Positions 27,769-36,874 of a DNA stretch of 64,000 nt are shown here, in pieces. A model generated the notes under the pieces. The model had not been told where the DNA came from and did not search any database. It worked only from the letters and a program-made list of their open reading frames with translations. Origin of the DNA: Arenicellales bacterium. Its GTDB lineage: Bacteria; Pseudomonadota; Gammaproteobacteria; Arenicellales; CBDCFT01. Position numbers and translations under genes: made by a program. Location: positions 185,106-249,105 of the forward strand of contig CBDCFT010000015.1 of NCBI GenBank assembly GCA_965216365.1. Direction: 5' to 3'. Numbering within the stretch: position 1 is the stretch's first letter; each line of letters starts with the position of its first letter.

Positions 27769-28181
27769 TAAAACTTGGCTTATAGAATCTCTATTAGTAC
27801 AAGAACATTGTAACTACGTGTTGATTTTGGGTACGTCGTACATCGAATAACTTTTCTGATCGACCCATAGCAGTCCGTTTTCCAAAGCTTTGGTGGAGTC
27901 CGCTATCGATCGCATAGCTGCCCTCCCTTTTTCTTTCTTTTGCATTAGGCATTACAGAATTCCAAAGTAGCAACCAAACAATGCATCGTTGCTCAATAAC
28001 CATTGGATCAATCTATAGTGAACACCTGTTATTGTTCAAGCGTTTATGGATAATCACACCCTTTAAGGAATCGAAACCACTCTCATACAAACTCAGAACG
28101 CGTTGTTTGGACACAGCGATGCGGTATTTTTTGATGCTAGGCGCAGTTTAAACTCTTGATACTAGGTAAATTCAAATCTCG

Positions 28182-29957
28182 ATGGAAAAACTCACGGACT
28201 TTAAACCAATCCATAAACTTACACTTCCCGACTTAGGGGAACTAACTTGTTCCGGTCTTACCATCATAGTTGGCCCAAATTCGCCAGGTAAGAGCCAACT
28301 ACTTAAAGACATCAACGAAAAAATAGCTGGCGACCCGCGAGAGTTAGTTGTCGCTGAATCAATTGAGTTGACAAATATCGATTACACAACTTTCTTAAAG
28401 TGCTTAATAACCGAGGGATATTTATCTTCTTTCTGGGACGATAATGATCAAGAGCAGTATATGCCGATGACTACTGCTATAGGTACCGGTCAAGGCGCTC
28501 AACAGGTGGGAACTCAACAACTTGAACAATGGAAAAGTCAGTCTCCAACAGCACATAAACGCAAAAAGAAAGATCAATACTTTGGATGGTTCAGCCGTTT
28601 CCTTGTAACCGCACTATTCTTAGAAAATCGACTCACAAGTATGTCTACCGCAAACACAATAGACTTTGAAACACAGCCTCCTACACACGATTTACATGCC
28701 TTGCACTTACACGACGAGGCTAGAAACGCCCTCACGGAAGAAATACAGCGAGCATTTTCAAAAGCTATTTGGTCCGACATATCTAAAGGTAATCAAATCT
28801 GTCTACGGATCGCTGAAACAGGAAAAGTTCCAAGTGCCGAAGACCGCCTTTCCGTTAAAGAAATGGCGAAGTACAGAACGTTAGCTTCCGAAGGCGATGG
28901 AATGAAATCTTATGTGGCTACCGTCATTTCGCTTCTACTCGGAAGACGCCCGATAAGTGTAATGGACGAACCGGAAATGTGTTTGCATCCACCGCAGGCT
29001 TACAACCTCGGACAATTTATAGGAAAGTCTGCGACTAGCAAGCAAACAAGAACTTTCGTCGCCACGCACAGTAGCCAAATTTTACGCGGCGTCTTACAAA
29101 CGGCTGAAGAGCTTCAAATAGTTCGATTAACAAGAAATCCAACTGGTTTTTCCGCAAAACATGTAGATTCAAAACTGTTAAATGAAGCGTTAAGAAAACC
29201 GACAGTACGAGCTGAAACTGTGCTTGATGGTATATTTGCTCAAGCTGTAGCAGTAGTTGAGGCGGATGGTGATCGGATCGTATATCAGGCAACGTGGGAA
29301 GTCGTTGGACAATCGCGTAATTTCGATATTCATTTTGCGACTACGGGTGGGACAGGCGGGATTTCCGATACATGCAAATTGTACAAAATGTTGGGCATTC
29401 CCGTAGCAGTGATCGCGGATTTAGATCTGATAACTGACTTAGGAAAAATCAAGGTGATCTTGCAGAGCTTAATCGATGACGCTGAAATAGTTGATGAGCT
29501 TGTGAGTACAGGTCATGAATTAGCCGATAAATTACAAAAACTTCCCCCAACTATTTCGGAAGCAGACCTCCACGATAGACTCAAGGAACTAGTACAGGAG
29601 AACTTTATTTGGGTTCAAGGAGATGATCATAAACTCAGACGTGAACTTTCGGGTCTAAGTAACAAACTAAACGGAATGCGGGGATTAAAAGGTGGCGGAC
29701 TTTCCGTACTTCCACTAGATGTTTCAAAACCATTGCTAGAATTGCTAGAGAAATTTCAACGTATCGGGCTATTCTTAGTACCCGTTGGAGAACTTGAATA
29801 TTGGCTACAGGATCATAGTATATCCGCCTCAAAAAAGAAAAAATGGGCCTGGGCTAATGAAGCAGCAGAATTTATAAGAATGAATCAACGACAACAGAAT
29901 GATATCTGGAAATTCATGGAAGATGTGGGAGCCTATTTAACAGGGCAATTCGTTTGA
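28182..29957 (+). CDS. OLD-family ATP-dependent endonuclease-like protein (ABC-type ATPase + TOPRIM)
   Basis: 591 aa. Walker A GPNSPGKSQLL, signature-like GMKS, Walker B ISVMDEPE and H-loop ATHSS. The C-terminal TOPRIM-like region has VAVVEADGDRIVY (E, DxD) and VAVIADLDLITD. The gene is low-GC relative to its flanks. Confidence 0.7.
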   Translation: MEKLTDFKPIHKLTLPDLGELTCSGLTIIVGPNSPGKSQLLKDINEKIAGDPRELVVAESIELTNIDYTTFLKCLITEGYLSSFWDDNDQEQYMPMTTAIGTGQGAQQVGTQQLEQWKSQSPTAHKRKKKDQYFGWFSRFLVTALFLENRLTSMSTANTIDFETQPPTHDLHALHLHDEARNALTEEIQRAFSKAIWSDISKGNQICLRIAETGKVPSAEDRLSVKEMAKYRTLASEGDGMKSYVATVISLLLGRRPISVMDEPEMCLHPPQAYNLGQFIGKSATSKQTRTFVATHSSQILRGVLQTAEELQIVRLTRNPTGFSAKHVDSKLLNEALRKPTVRAETVLDGIFAQAVAVVEADGDRIVYQATWEVVGQSRNFDIHFATTGGTGGISDTCKLYKMLGIPVAVIADLDLITDLGKIKVILQSLIDDAEIVDELVSTGHELADKLQKLPPTISEADLHDRLKELVQENFIWVQGDDHKLRRELSGLSNKLNGMRGLKGGGLSVLPLDVSKPLLELLEKFQRIGLFLVPVGELEYWLQDHSISASKKKKWAWANEAAEFIRMNQRQQNDIWKFMEDVGAYLTGQFV

Positions 29958-30221
29958 TATTTAAATGAAGCGCAATCAGATTAATTCATTATCTTGGTTT
30001 GCCTCTCGTGAATTTTGCTTGCCGATAGATGCCTACTTTTGTATACACACCTGACTCTGTAAAAAGCTACACAAAACGTCAGCTTTTGGCCGCACTGAGC
30101 GCGTCGTAGTCAAAATATGTTTCATTGATAGGTGGATGAATAGGAGAAACACAAACAATCTATGGGCGTGGATGCACTTCCCGAATAGTGAAATCTGACG
30201 TCGGTCGGTATTGCCAATGCT

Positions 30222-30416
30222 TCAGTTATCTTTGGAATAATTATCGGTGACTGATTTCTGTTCGGGTTCGATTACGTTTCTTTCAGAGAAATAGTCGTCA
30301 ATCTCATCTTGTAGTGATTGATTGGCGTTGAATCGTTGTCCGGAACGCGAACGCACGTGAGCACCGCCCTTGCGCATGATGGGCGCCCAGGTGTAGGGGT
30401 TTCTTGGTGCAGGCAT
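30222..30416 (-). CDS. Possible small (64 aa) ORF co-oriented 10 nt downstream of the 313-aa gene
   Basis: MPAPRNPYTW...; a GGAA motif lies 10 nt upstream. No similarity to anything I recognise. Confidence 0.25.
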   Translation of the reverse strand: MPAPRNPYTWAPIMRKGGAHVRSRSGQRFNANQSLQDEIDDYFSERNVIEPEQKSVTDNYSKDN

Positions 30417-30426
30417 TTTCTATTTC

Positions 30427-31368
30427 CTAAAGTGCTAACCGATACCAGTTATGTTGCTTTAATTCACGTTTGCGTTTACGCCCGGCCAGCAAAAATTCTG
30501 GTGGTCGCGAAGTAAGCTGAAAACAGAACTTCTTTGGTAATTGGCTATAAATGGATTTCGGTGGTTTAGCATTGTCGATGCGTTTCAGCGCCGCACCGGA
30601 TTCGTTCGTGTGGTAGTAAATGTTACGAATTCCTATTTCGTCACGAATAAATCGAATCGCAGCGGTAAGCATAGCTTCTGGCCACATCGTTCGATAAGGT
30701 TGCAACACCTGTTCAATATAGGTTTTGATATCTTCTATGTTTCCGTCAATTTTCTTGCGTTGCCAGTACTTTTCCGGTTTGCGGGCGTTTAATAATGGCT
30801 TTAAGTACCAGTCGGCATAACGTAGCCAATCCGATTGAATTTCTTCAATTAGCGCTTCGTCCATGTCAAACTCCAGGTCAATTCGCGCCCAGGCCAGAGT
30901 GTCGCGGTAAAAACCACTACGTTTACGCGTGGCAACCGGATGATACCTATTGTTTAGAAATCCATCGCTCTTGGGTTTGACCAATTGATAGTACTGCTCC
31001 TGATGTTTATTGCTGAAATTGAGTTGCAACACCAGATTGACTCCTTTTCTGGATAACTGATCGTAACGCCAATACTTAGGTCCACCCCATATCGATAGTC
31101 CCAGAAAAAACGATTCACTAGGTTCCTGCCAGTGGTTCAGCAGATCTTCACGCTTTATCTTGCTGCCACCGTAACGCGCGAACGCTTGCTTGACTGTTGG
31201 TTTTTCCAGCAGTTGTGCGAAATCGGTTTTCTTCAGGTCGCTCACACGACTCCCATCGCCCACAGCTTGCGCTAACAACGAAAATGCATAACCATCTTTG
31301 AAATAAAGGAATGGTGTTTTGCCTTTCGGCAGGCAATATCTGATTGCTTTTGCCGTTCGTAGTTTCAT
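30427..31368 (-). CDS. Hypothetical lysine-rich 313-aa protein with no recognisable domain
   Basis: Long low-GC ORF with coding-like composition, convergent with the OLD-like gene. Confidence 0.5.
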   Translation of the reverse strand: MKLRTAKAIRYCLPKGKTPFLYFKDGYAFSLLAQAVGDGSRVSDLKKTDFAQLLEKPTVKQAFARYGGSKIKREDLLNHWQEPSESFFLGLSIWGGPKYWRYDQLSRKGVNLVLQLNFSNKHQEQYYQLVKPKSDGFLNNRYHPVATRKRSGFYRDTLAWARIDLEFDMDEALIEEIQSDWLRYADWYLKPLLNARKPEKYWQRKKIDGNIEDIKTYIEQVLQPYRTMWPEAMLTAAIRFIRDEIGIRNIYYHTNESGAALKRIDNAKPPKSIYSQLPKKFCFQLTSRPPEFLLAGRKRKRELKQHNWYRLAL

Positions 31369-31451
31369 GATTTGTTCGGATTCACTGTCGGCCCGGGCAC
31401 CATTGCCCCGGGCCTCGTCTTTTTCTTATTGTGTCGATCAGTGCTCTTCCC

Positions 31452-32549
31452 TTATTCAGGACGAACATTGATCTTCACAACGTCTTGCATCACACCGTCG
31501 AGACCACCGAAGACTGTTAGACGGTCAACTTTTTCAGTCACCTTTTCCAGCACTTCCAGCTCTTTCAGGCGTAACAATGTCGGGTTGTCATCCATCAGGC
31601 GCGCGGTGTTTAACGCTGACCGTGTGGCCGCGGTTTCCTCGCGTCGTTTGATGACATTCGCCTGGGCGATTTTTTCAGCCTCAACCACCTGGTTGAGAAT
31701 GGCTTTCATTTCACCCGGCAAAATTACGTCCTTGATACCGACACCGTTAACGTCGACGCCGATCTCCACTACTTTGGCACGAACGTTCTCGTATACATTA
31801 CGATCCAGTTCATCCTTGTTGCCCAGCAATGCATCGAGAGTGCGCGCGGCGATGGCCTGACGCACCGCGAATTGCAACTCGCGGTACATGTAGTCCATAA
31901 AACTCGCGACCTGGGTTCGTGCTTTGATGACATCGACCACTTTGTACGACGCTGCCATGTTGACACGCAGACTGACCTTGTCCTTGGTCAGCATTTCCTG
32001 ACCCGAAACTTCCAGGGTTTGTAAACGTGTGTCGATTTGTTCCACCACAATACGTCGGTTGAACTTCCAGAACACATACAAACCCGGTTGCAGTGTTTTG
32101 ATCAATTCGCCGTCCACTAACAGCAAGCCGGTGAACTGATCTGCCACTTCCGCGACATAGGTAAATTCTTTAACTCGTGCTGATAACGCACCGGGTCGTT
32201 GGCGTGCTAACAGTGCAGCAATTTCGCGTGGTACAACGAAATCCTCTGCGATATCGAGTACGTCAACGCGCACGTCAACCGGACCTTTCCAGTACAGTTG
32301 GCGAGTCGCGGGCGGTAATACATCGGTCAATTTGTTGTCCTTGAACACCAGACCCACTTCACGGTCACCGAGCTCAATCACATCAAAGTGTTGCTGCGCT
32401 AGTTGCGGTACTTCTTTGACCAAGAAATCCGCTAACCGGTGTTCAAATTCCGGTACCAGCAAGTCGTACACTTCAATTTGTGTGCGGTTTCCGAAAACCC
32501 AGTAAACACCCGGGCCAACGATATCCTGCACACTTCGATTTTTAATCAA
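31452..32549 (-). CDS. SPFH/band-7 (slipin/flotillin-like) domain protein
   Basis: 365 aa; the C-terminal half ...KDVILPGEMKAILNQVVEAEKIAQANVIKRREETAATR... is a typical SPFH domain. Confidence 0.8.
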   Translation of the reverse strand: MIKNRSVQDIVGPGVYWVFGNRTQIEVYDLLVPEFEHRLADFLVKEVPQLAQQHFDVIELGDREVGLVFKDNKLTDVLPPATRQLYWKGPVDVRVDVLDIAEDFVVPREIAALLARQRPGALSARVKEFTYVAEVADQFTGLLLVDGELIKTLQPGLYVFWKFNRRIVVEQIDTRLQTLEVSGQEMLTKDKVSLRVNMAASYKVVDVIKARTQVASFMDYMYRELQFAVRQAIAARTLDALLGNKDELDRNVYENVRAKVVEIGVDVNGVGIKDVILPGEMKAILNQVVEAEKIAQANVIKRREETAATRSALNTARLMDDNPTLLRLKELEVLEKVTEKVDRLTVFGGLDGVMQDVVKINVRPE

Positions 32550-33040: not shown

Positions 33041-33113
33041 AGTTGAGAGCAGGACTCGAACCTGCTACACACCGATTAAACGTCGGTTGCTCTACCCAAT
33101 GAGCTATCTCAGT
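33041..33113 (-). tRNA. tRNA-Lys(UUU)-like sequence, probably a pseudo-tRNA
   Basis: The minus strand reads ACTGAGA-TA-GCTC-ATTGGGTA-GAGC-A-ACCGA-CGTTTAA-TCGGT-GTGTA-GCAGG-TTCGAGT-CCTGC-TCTCAAC-T. The D, anticodon (UUU) and T arms are canonical. Position 33 is G instead of U, the outer two acceptor pairs are mismatched, and there is no CCA. Confidence 0.45.
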
Positions 33114-35272: not shown

Positions 35273-35333
35273 ACTTGGATTTGTAATCAATTTACCGCAG
35301 GTCAACGCCTGAGGTTTTAAGTTCGGCCAGTAG
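35261..35333. repeat. Direct repeat DR1 (last 23 nt of the GFA CDS plus ~50 nt downstream), ~85% identical to 39908–39990
   Basis: tacgaaaaagcgatgacgtaaac...ggatttgtaatcaattt.ccg...cctgaggtt.taagttcggc is shared by both copies. Confidence 0.6.
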
Positions 35334-36385: not shown

Positions 36386-36874
36386 TTAGACCTCTCGATT
36401 TGTCTCTATGTCCCAGCCGCGACTGACAGGAGGTGTTGGGGTACCCGCCTGGTCTATTGGTCTATACTCAACTGTTACCTTTCGATAACGAAATGTGACT
36501 GCTTCGGACGGTCGCTCCTGTGAAGAGTCCGTGCCGTCATCATTAACGGAGCTGACCATACAGTCATTGAGCACATACTTAACGAAGGTGTGTCTTTCCC
36601 CGCCGGTGCGGACGCCTTCGAGTTCAACAGTCGGAATTCGCTTACCGTTGGCACAGTGAATCATCAAATCAGGAGTTGCTCTATCGACGCTTTTTAATAT
36701 TCCCAGGTCAATAAAGTTTACTTTTCCAGAAGTTCGATCTCTCGGAGCGCTTGAGTCTAGGGCTGGAGTTTCAACACCCCAGCTGTAACTGTGTACATCG
36801 ATCCACTTGTTGTGATCAGCGTCCGTGCTTTCACCTTCAATGCCGTCTATACGAAGAAAATAGTCTACCGCCAC
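36386..36874 (-). CDS. hcp: Type VI secretion system tube protein Hcp (orphan)
   Basis: 162 aa with MAVDYFLRIDGIEGESTD...SYSWGV...VEYRP, hallmark Hcp1-family motifs, and an AAGGAGG SD. No other T6SS genes are in the window. Confidence 0.85.
   Translation of the reverse strand: MAVDYFLRIDGIEGESTDADHNKWIDVHSYSWGVETPALDSSAPRDRTSGKVNFIDLGILKSVDRATPDLMIHCANGKRIPTVELEGVRTGGERHTFVKYVLNDCMVSSVNDDGTDSSQERPSEAVTFRYRKVTVEYRPIDQAGTPTPPVSRGWDIETNREV

Follow-up and report, generated by a model that had tools for sequence, protein, structure and literature searches.

In every known non-stop ribosome rescue factor, a positively charged segment probes the mRNA channel when it is empty (PMC12829566). Two of them, ArfA of Escherichia coli and BrfA of Bacillus subtilis, are regarded as mutually unrelated, and both are produced from messages without a stop codon: brfA carries a terminator inside its open reading frame (ORF) that yields a non-stop mRNA, and arfA arrives at the same outcome through cleavage by RNase III and/or termination, so that both factors are made only when trans-translation is saturated (PMC6881298). 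PrfH frees the peptide from ribosomes cut at A1493/G1494 of 16S rRNA, after which RtcB religates the 30S subunit (PMC9304027, PMC12829566), and PrfH-RtcB systems are regarded as counter-measures to ribotoxins (PMC6514570, PMC9304027). Ribosome rescue (by tmRNA, ArfA, ArfB, BrfA, ArfT and PrfH) and RNA repair by RtcB are being merged into a single 'rescue then repair' pathway. To our knowledge, the PrfH-RtcB2 pair is the only one studied so far in this pathway. Here we analyse two adjacent genes, one encoding a protein of 313 amino acids (aa), which we call G313, and the other a protein of 64 aa, from a 64-kb stretch of an Arenicellales bacterium genome (contig CBDCFT010000015.1 of assembly GCA_965216365.1). 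This whole stretch is referred to as the window, and positions are counted from its first letter.

We estimate a probability of about 55% that these two genes, together with the SPFH gene next to them, work as one chromosomal module on ribosomes that are stalled or damaged. The reading is based on the constant pairing of the G313 family with PrfH, ArfB, a cationic peptide or a tethered tail, on its linkage to RtcB and an RbfA-like protein, and on the non-stop design of the small gene in many lineages. The locus in the window appears to be a reduced, RtcB-less form of a widespread operon with the order (RbfA-like)-RtcB-G313-small. Its features are as follows.

31452..32549, minus strand: SPFH/band-7 gene, 365 aa, directly upstream of the G313 gene (Pfam Band_7, E=1.5e-27)
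30427..31368, minus strand: G313 gene, encoding a 313-aa basic protein with a predicted divergent GNAT-like fold (ORF list, homologues, AlphaFold2 model, dN/dS, isoelectric point)
30499..31119, minus strand: approximate GNAT-like core of G313, residues about 84-290, which holds the conserved blocks
30417..30429, minus strand: TAG stop of G313, an overlapping AGGAAA Shine-Dalgarno-like motif and the 10-nucleotide spacer to the ATG of the small ORF (sequence)
30222..30416, minus strand: small-protein gene, 64 aa, with a cationic N-terminal motif followed by an unconstrained acidic tail (ORF list, family profile)
30321..30416, minus strand: codons 1-32 of the small ORF, the conserved motif and functional part (alignment A2, dN/dS)

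Both ORFs start with ATG and lie on the same strand, separated by exactly 10 nucleotides (nt; GAAATAGAAA); the ORF list and the sequence confirm the coordinates and spacing given in a preliminary description of this DNA. The same layout of stop codon and Shine-Dalgarno motif (TAAGGAG, TTTAGGAG) is found again in homologous loci, and translational coupling of the two ORFs is likely. The small ORF is also called as a gene in the public annotation of the same contig, of 347 kb.

Gene neighbourhood of the large gene

The gene neighbourhood was analysed in the best 80 of at least 405 genome loci related to the 313-aa gene. All ORFs of these 80 loci were clustered and the clusters named by Pfam and NCBIfam, which gave the following recurrent partners.

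RtcB RNA ligase: 51 of 80 loci; same strand, mostly directly upstream, gaps of 1-100 nt (PF01139, E=1e-131)
Small peptide: 47 of 80 loci; same strand (family hidden Markov model, HMM)
RbfA-like protein, about 150 aa: 18 of 80 loci; upstream of RtcB (PF02033, 39.9 bits versus a cut-off of 34.7)
SPFH protein orthologous to window 31452..32549: 17 of 80 loci; beside the large gene, 9 of the 17 also with RtcB
HNH protein: 10 of 80 loci (Pfam HNH_5, E=2e-16)
PrfH: 7 of 80 loci; placed between RtcB and the large gene whenever the contig contains the two (TIGR03072, 216 bits versus 167)
rsmB: 5 of 80 loci; upstream of the large gene, in Hyphomicrobiales-type loci
ArfB: 4 of 80 loci (L041, L055, L056, L073); immediately downstream, exactly where other loci have the small ORF (NF006718, 133-146 bits versus 100)

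The commonest operon layout is (RbfA-like)-RtcB-G313-small, and a gene of rescue-factor type adjoins the large gene in 58 of the 80 loci. In each of the seven PrfH loci the PrfH gene is followed directly by the 313-aa gene. A rough neighbour-joining tree of the large protein indicates that the type of partner switched in at least three clades. Carriers of the family are mainly sulfur-oxidising and methanotrophic Gammaproteobacteria, Desulfobacterota and Hyphomicrobiales, with a count of at least 405 genome loci and about 850 protein clusters. Examples in which ArfB or PrfH replaces the small gene are L055 (5546-5965) and L067 (4503-5147).

The large protein of the window falls in an 'SPFH clade', of which the members L007 and L012 keep RtcB. 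The SPFH gene is syntenic with the window in the close relative L081. An SPFH protein, PaFlo8, also sits inside the rtcR-rtcB-rtcA locus of P. aeruginosa (PMC13086221). The RbfA paralogue lies directly upstream of RtcB in its 18 operons (for example 4281-4733 of L026, encoding 150 aa) and scores below the NCBIfam equivalog cut-offs for RbfA; its presence suggests the 3' domain of the 30S subunit as the target of repair.

Two further arrangements were observed among the 80 loci. An HNH protein of about 200 aa defines a sub-architecture in L007, L015, L020, L023, L051, L055, L056, L074, L077 and L079, often in company with the SPFH gene and with an XRE-type regulator transcribed divergently. Several of these have the small gene upstream, as a member of a distinct subfamily, MKIKI..RNP(L/F)H.HPL(M/L)(R/K)KGGVHEKS, with long AU-rich hairpins inside the ORF. 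Loci of Hyphomicrobiales type (L043, L048, L054, L066 and L076) place the large gene between rsmB, which encodes the 16S m5C967 methyltransferase, and a membrane-protein gene that is followed by guaA; RtcB and the small gene are both absent from them. L076 is labelled Flavobacteriaceae yet shows this arrangement, and may be mis-binned.

The small protein and predicted terminators inside its ORF

The small-protein family comprises 1307 members. Where the family HMM finds the small ORF beside the large gene, the gap is usually 6-12 nt, with the small ORF downstream, and a Shine-Dalgarno-like motif stands 4-12 nt upstream of 44 of 48 small ORFs, against a background of 12% (p=3e-36). The ORF is thus conserved and has a ribosome-binding site in homologous loci, a point that the preliminary description had left to be checked. 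Codons 1-32 encode the motif MPxPRNPxxxxP(I/L)(M/L)RKGG(A/V)HxxSxSGQR; in alignment A2, G17, H20 and R28 are invariant, and R5, N6, P12, K16 and G18 are conserved at 90% or more. Compared with L081, dN/dS is 0.043 over codons 1-32, indicating purifying selection, and 1.34 over codons 33-64, as expected for neutral sequence. This split argues that the small ORF is translated and that its function lies in the N-terminal motif. The same boundary divides the protein by charge, with an isoelectric point (pI) of 12 for residues 1-32 and of 4 for residues 33-64, so that the early characterisation of the ORF as 'basic/acidic' holds.

The core of the motif, RKGG(A/V)H (residues 15-20; 30357-30374, minus strand), has a superficial likeness to the GGQ(H/N) loop of ArfB and PrfH. 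Together with the KGG(M/S)GG of the fused proteins described below, these could represent a common recognition element, a likeness that is without statistical support.

The variable 3' part of the small ORF is unusually structured, with a median z-score of -2.4 versus -0.35 for control segments inside the large gene. A hairpin reaching -12 kcal/mol or better occurs in 42 loci, and in 33 of them the most stable one is located within the small ORF, ahead of its stop codon. We predicted strict terminators from sequence as a GC-rich stem with 6 or more T in the next 8 nt. Such terminators are present in 14 small ORFs with the hairpin ending 7-143 nt before the stop, and after the stop in 2; in the control set of 583 ordinary long genes from the same loci, 18 (3%) have one before the stop and 37 after or across it. 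The bias is significant by Fisher test both among terminator-bearing genes (p=1.3e-4) and for 14 of 47 versus 18 of 583 (p=4e-9). The in-ORF terminators are built on at least six unrelated stem sequences, and those of L003, L045 and L069 are confirmed by an independent terminator scanner. A transcript that ends at such a terminator has no stop codon. Their presence also explains the odd hydrophobic C-terminal tails of the predicted proteins, which would be translated terminators.

In L051 (6958-7143), where the small gene is followed by RtcB, the in-ORF hairpin of -23.7 kcal/mol has no T-tract and so may be an RNase processing site, as in E. coli arfA, rather than a terminator.

The large protein and its fused relatives

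The clean coding ORF reported initially for G313 is a real gene. A word-indexed search returned 858 homologues and an exhaustive profile search 854 cluster representatives at 50% identity, nearly all of 310-330 aa, aligning end to end and named 'hypothetical' in every source; dN/dS against L081, whose protein is 79% identical, is 0.07. The epithet 'lysine-rich' proved moderately true, as the protein contains 31 Lys (9.9%) and also 25 Arg (8%), with a pI of 9.8 and a net charge of +22, and the family has a median pI of 9.3. The reported lack of Walker A, HxH, HNH-like and PD-(D/E)xK motifs was borne out, and that of DxD was not: there is one (D168-M-D170), which is non-conserved. The term 'domain-less' is correct at the level of sequence profiles, because neither protein matches a Pfam, NCBIfam, PADLOC or PHROG family at E<=1; for G313 this includes the Pfam and NCBIfam profiles of GNAT enzymes.

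Alignment A1 contains about 40 invariant positions, gathered in sharp blocks: NLVLQLNFSNxH, HPV, TLAWARIDL(D/E)F..ALIEEIQSDW, W.EAML.A.I.FI..E.GI..IYYH and PP(R/K)S(L/I)Y..LP(R/K)KFCF. About 20 invariant polar residues lie in core strands, among them H122, H143, R107, R162, D164, E175, E176, Q178, D180, H253, Y274 and C282. An AlphaFold2 model built from a 37-sequence alignment is confident (mean per-residue confidence, pLDDT, 89.4; predicted template-modelling score, pTM, 0.91), and Foldseek comparisons with the PDB and with viral structures agree on a GNAT-like fold. The GNAT order of mixed sheet and helices (beta1-alpha1-alpha2-beta2-4-alpha3-beta5-alpha4-beta6) is present in the model, which also shows about 80 extra residues as an N-terminal domain and about 40 more in a helical insertion. 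Of the remote-homology checks proposed at the outset, comparison of the predicted structure led to a fold, and a search of PDB sequences with the G313 profile gave no match at E<=10.

On the basis of the model, G313 has a divergent GNAT-type acyltransferase fold, a likeness at the level of the fold only. Given that no sequence profile matches, that the coenzyme A (CoA) loop is replaced and that extra domains are present, we use the label 'GNAT-like'. G313 is probably an enzymatic protein, conserved and without an assigned family, as the preliminary description had supposed for its family status.

The best viral fold matches to the G313 model in the BFVD database are segments of 'polyvalent' proteins of about 1000-1400 aa from uncultured phages. 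The top match (A0A516LVQ9_1) has E=1e-4 with a low TM-score, and the polyvalent segments outrank ordinary viral GNATs and a FemAB-family protein. No member of the G313 family was found among 72,556 plasmid and 50,697 phage records.

In 13 clusters of 371-430 aa the enzyme domain is preceded by an N-terminal extension, consisting in order of a basic Gly-rich motif (e.g. KKQRKGGSGGRLGRSNMSHW) that includes KGG(M/S)GG, a basic/acidic helix and a Lys-rich linker. The four genomic contexts examined for such fused genes are stand-alone, with neither RtcB nor a small ORF. An AlphaFold model of the fused form predicts the enzyme domain with confidence and a helix at residues 27-53 (pLDDT up to 85); residues 1-25, with the Gly-rich motif, are disordered (pLDDT about 35), and docking of the extension on the enzyme domain is not seen in this model. 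We treat the extension as an analogue, and not a homologue, of the small protein. The arrangement of flexible cationic tail, linker and enzyme domain mirrors the design of ArfB and PrfH-CT, in which a basic tail is tethered to a catalytic domain.

Proposed role, alternatives and known systems

The basic tails of SmpB, ArfA, ArfB, BrfA and PrfH-CT probe the empty mRNA channel or the decoding centre. By analogy, the small protein would be a ribosome-binding peptide whose active part is its cationic, constrained first 30 residues. It uses the genomic slot beside the large gene that ArfB or PrfH takes in other lineages, and would probably either provide peptidyl-tRNA release or recruit a release factor. 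Where an in-ORF terminator is predicted, the peptide would come from a message without a stop codon and build up only under overload of trans-translation, like ArfA and BrfA. G313 would reach these ribosomes through the peptide or, in the fused clade, through a cationic tail tethered to it. There, its fold and basic charge being the observed part of this step, it may catalyse a reaction of the acyl-transfer type, with aminoacyl- or peptidyl-tRNA, a protein of the small subunit or 16S rRNA as examples of a ribosome-bound substrate; put more broadly, its substrate could be a ribosome-bound acyl ester, a component of the small subunit or the factor itself. RtcB and the RbfA-like protein, in operons that have them, would reseal and refold cut 16S rRNA, on the precedent of PrfH-RtcB2. 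The better-supported half of this model is the small peptide as a ribosome-binding factor analogous to ArfA and BrfA.

A narrower version, which we put forward as tentative and on balance doubtful, is that the small protein represents a further, independently evolved family of alternative rescue factors, and that G313 is a GNAT-fold enzyme with a new rescue or repair step. The small protein would then be made from its own non-stop mRNA in many lineages, and G313, delivered by the peptide or the tethered tail, would act on the peptidyl- or aminoacyl-tRNA ester or mark the decoding region for RtcB and the RbfA-like factor.

Several results weigh against a role in ribosome rescue and repair. The small protein has no detectable kinship with ArfA, hhalign of A2 against ArfA giving a probability of 0.8%, and a search of all PDB chains with the A2 profile at E<=10 returned three chance-level matches (SSO1, uL30) and no rescue factor. 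Direct assignment to a known family was likewise rejected, to ArfA because none of 28 family members matches the Pfam family (PF03889; E. coli ArfA as control scores 89.5 bits), and to BrfA because no rescue-factor chain appeared in the A2 search. Structures of rescue factors in the PDB include BrfA (6SZS) and ArfA (5U4I) (PMC12829566). Homology between the fused extension and the small protein is likewise not supported, with 6.5 bits as the best HMM score and an hhalign probability of 2%. Within the window's copy of the small ORF there is neither a hairpin nor a terminator (z=-0.04), the only hairpin lying 22 nt past the stop, which leaves this copy without the regulatory trait that is the most suggestive. 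That copy and its close relative in L081, which likewise lacks an in-ORF terminator, end at an ordinary stop codon, so the window copy would not be regulated by the non-stop route.

The neighbourhood adds further counter-evidence. No rescue-factor-like neighbour occurs within 6 kb in 22 of the 80 loci. The small ORF and PrfH or ArfB never occur together (naive hypergeometric probability 1.8e-5 over the 80 loci), which speaks for the proposed role, yet the PrfH and ArfB loci come down to only about three independent clades of the large protein's tree, with P about 0.07 at that level. RtcB, PrfH, ArfB and the RbfA-like gene, and also an HNH gene, are found neither next to the pair nor anywhere else in the 64 kb of the window. 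As for the enzyme, inspection of A1 against the secondary structure of the model shows that the acyl-CoA pyrophosphate loop Q/R-x-x-G-x-G/A (beta4/alpha3) is not in G313; the equivalent stretch after strand ALIEEIQ reads S-D-W-(L/V/I)-R, with no conserved glycine. Its cofactor, and even whether it is catalytic, is uncertain, and the functional evidence as a whole is association only, by fold similarity and gene neighbourhood.

The alternatives that we considered all fit the data poorly, and the first two are variants within the rescue pathway. One is that G313 matures the factor by acylating its neighbour, on the near-invariant Lys16 or another residue of RKGG(V/A)H or in the GGQ-loop region of ArfB and PrfH, and thereby switches it on or off. 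The enzyme gene always lies directly beside the factor gene where there is one and is probably translationally coupled to it, the peptide, ArfB and PrfH all carry Gly-Gly-x-His or GGQ(H/N), the fused clade carries KGG(M/S)GG, and some GNATs do acetylate peptides and proteins, including lasso peptides and ribosomal proteins. We nevertheless find this unlikely, given the undocked, disordered Gly-rich motif of the fused model, the lack of statistical support for the Gly-Gly likeness, the 22 loci in which the enzyme has no factor gene nearby and the missing CoA-binding loop.

Somewhat less probable is a non-catalytic role in ribosome or 30S assembly, in which G313 would be a GNAT-like scaffold on the small subunit that refolds or re-matures the decoding region with the RbfA-like protein, the peptide serving as an anti-association or placeholder factor. 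RimJ offers a parallel, as it doubles as an assembly factor. The absence of the canonical acyl-CoA loop, the strongly basic character of G313, and the linkage to the RbfA paralogue (18 loci) and to rsmB (5 Hyphomicrobiales loci) would all suit such a scaffold, but the invariant polar residues in the core strands form a pattern more typical of an active site.

A toxin-antitoxin system, with G313 as a GNAT-like toxin that blocks translation in the manner of the aminoacyl-tRNA acetyltransferases TacT, AtaT and ItaT and the small acidic-tailed protein as antitoxin, is very unlikely. It would account for a two-gene cassette that combines a GNAT fold, a small partner and a translation theme, and the acidic tail could neutralise a basic toxin. 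However, the small gene lies downstream and encodes no DNA-binding domain, and the conserved part of its product is the basic N-terminus, the acidic tail being neutral and in many loci past an internal terminator. In addition, the large gene lacks the small gene in 33 of 80 loci and also occurs as a fusion, neither protein matches a PADLOC or Pfam toxin or antitoxin, the family is not seen on plasmids or phages, and a 313-aa protein without a CoA loop differs from GNAT toxins of roughly 170 aa.

The preliminary description had placed the pair inside a low-GC island and proposed it, from its proximity to an OLD-like nuclease, as a candidate effector or immunity component. The pair does lie close to an OLD-like ATPase/TOPRIM gene (28182..29957, plus strand; Pfam AAA_21 and OLD-like_TOPRIM, and the PADLOC models AriA, Old and GajA at about 1e-12), and the GC content of the large gene (0.45) is slightly below the window mean of 0.49. 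We give hardly any credence to a defence-island component working with this nuclease. The two units are convergently oriented, no second defence gene of GajB or AriB type is visible next to the OLD gene, and no PADLOC partner model matches either ORF. In none of the 80 related loci does an OLD gene adjoin the pair, and the syntenic locus L081 lacks it; there the order GFA-Rieske-SPFH-large-small matches the window and is then followed by unrelated genes. Collinearity with L081 (80% DNA identity) runs from window position 35273 down to 30076 and so ends 146 nt past the small ORF, between it and the OLD gene. The low-GC claim applies to the OLD-bearing segment (27769..30075, 0.40-0.43) and not to the three genes of interest (0.45-0.51). 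These findings effectively refute the defence role: the OLD-like nuclease is an unrelated insertion and a coincidental neighbour. Conserved synteny elsewhere, which the earlier account had linked with a housekeeping family as evidence that would count against its proposal, was found in spirit, the partners being RtcB, the RbfA-like protein, PrfH, ArfB and the SPFH protein. Given that PrfH-RtcB systems are seen as ribotoxin counter-measures, an 'anti-damage' role of the pair is plausible independently of OLD.

A pathway for ribosomally synthesised and post-translationally modified peptides, with the small ORF as precursor and G313 as tailoring enzyme, merits equally little credence, as the conserved surroundings consist of genes for RNA repair and translation, with no protease, transporter or cyclase among them, the variable C-terminal part, which evolves neutrally or is not translated, is not a diversifying core, and ArfB or PrfH takes the place of the small gene in other lineages.

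The remaining features around the locus are as follows.

31390..31414, minus strand: GC-rich hairpin GGCCCGGGGC-AATG-GTGCCCGGGCC, in the 83-nt spacer between the SPFH gene and the G313 gene (RNA fold of the spacer)
33041-33113, minus strand: tRNA-Lys(UUU), just upstream of the SPFH gene
36386-36874, minus strand: orphan-looking gene for the type VI secretion protein Hcp (PF05638, 128 bits), with no other type VI secretion genes in the stretch examined

The SPFH/G313 spacer folds at -26.5 kcal/mol (z=-3.3), an energy matched by 1 of 200 shuffled sequences; no T-tract follows the hairpin, which could be a processing or attenuation site. A genomic island flanked by the tRNA-Lys gene was considered and rejected, since neither an att-like direct repeat nor an integrase lies nearby and there is thus no sign of an integrated element at this site. 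An Rfam search around the locus scored only the tRNA, matches to RAGATH-8 (20 bits versus a gathering score of 86.7) and ycf2 being chance, and predictions of sigma-70 promoters and terminators between 29900 and 33200 of the window gave nothing above shuffled expectation.

The gene pair marks a much larger and unexamined set of operons, whose constant element is an enzyme without an assigned family, paired by turns with PrfH, ArfB or a new cationic peptide. If the proposed role is correct, the small protein would join the candidate rescue factors as a new case of the non-stop-mRNA feedback known from ArfA and BrfA, G313 would for the first time extend the enzymes implicated in rescue and repair beyond hydrolases and ligases, and the whole would offer a testable system of three small proteins plus ribosomes. 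The analysis also corrects an easy mis-annotation, in that an OLD nuclease close by is no ground for calling these genes a defence system. No description of the G313/small pair was found in the literature searched, which did not extend to the RNA-repair survey of Burroughs and Aravind (2016).

Set beside described systems, the pair is unlike the type II GNAT toxin-antitoxins (TacAT, AtaRT, KacAT), which have a toxin of about 170 aa, an upstream antitoxin of the ribbon-helix-helix or DUF1778 type, and constant co-occurrence of the two. Nor does it resemble defence of the OLD, Gabija or PARIS type, as it matches no partner model and has no conserved adjacency to OLD. From the GNAT superfamily at large (RimI/RimJ/RimL, NatD/Naa80, TacT/AtaT), G313 differs in having no GNAT profile match and no CoA loop, in being about twice the size, and in which His, Asp, Glu and Cys residues are invariant.

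A further comparison is with ArfB (YaeJ), a GGQ hydrolase with a basic C-terminal tail that is encoded in the slot of the small ORF in four loci; the small peptide has no GGQ domain, its RKGG(V/A)H resembling GGQH only superficially, and so cannot hydrolyse peptidyl-tRNA as ArfB does. With the PrfH-RtcB2 operon of E. coli ATCC 25922 and Capnocytophaga gingivalis, the loci share a ligase of the RtcB family tightly linked to the gene of an A-site or mRNA-channel factor, which is PrfH itself, followed by the 313-aa gene, in seven of them. The RbfA-like partner points to the 3' domain of the 30S subunit, the site of the colicin-E3 cut repaired by RtcB2 (PMC9304027, PMC12829566). On the other hand, RtcB in these loci scores below the cut-off of the NCBIfam model for PrfH-associated RtcB (157 versus 272 bits), most operons have the small peptide in the place of PrfH, the window has no RtcB, and a GNAT-like enzyme accompanies all loci here, whereas it is not part of the two-gene rtcB2-prfH operon of E. 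coli. The accessory genes listed for PrfH-RtcB systems by Burroughs and Aravind (2019) comprise TPR, Pol-beta nucleotidyltransferase, ZnR and charged-helix proteins and unnamed 'RFR' domains (PMC6514570); a GNAT-like enzyme is not among the named genes of that list, in which the 'RFR' domains are left unnamed.

ArfA (YhdL) and BrfA offer a likeness in design. The small protein has no sequence relationship to either, its basic segment is N-terminal where theirs is a C-terminal tail that probes the channel, its gene is accompanied by that of a dedicated GNAT-like enzyme and usually by RtcB, unlike arfA and brfA, and the copy in the window has a normal stop and no internal hairpin. Like them, it is a small protein in the range of about 55-75 aa, with its function apparently in a short basic segment and a dispensable C-terminus, and its gene carries a predicted terminator or hairpin before the stop in 14 loci by the strict definition or 33 by the relaxed one, an arrangement as described for arfA and brfA (PMC6881298). 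Since ArfA and BrfA are themselves mutually unrelated, convergence on this design has a precedent.

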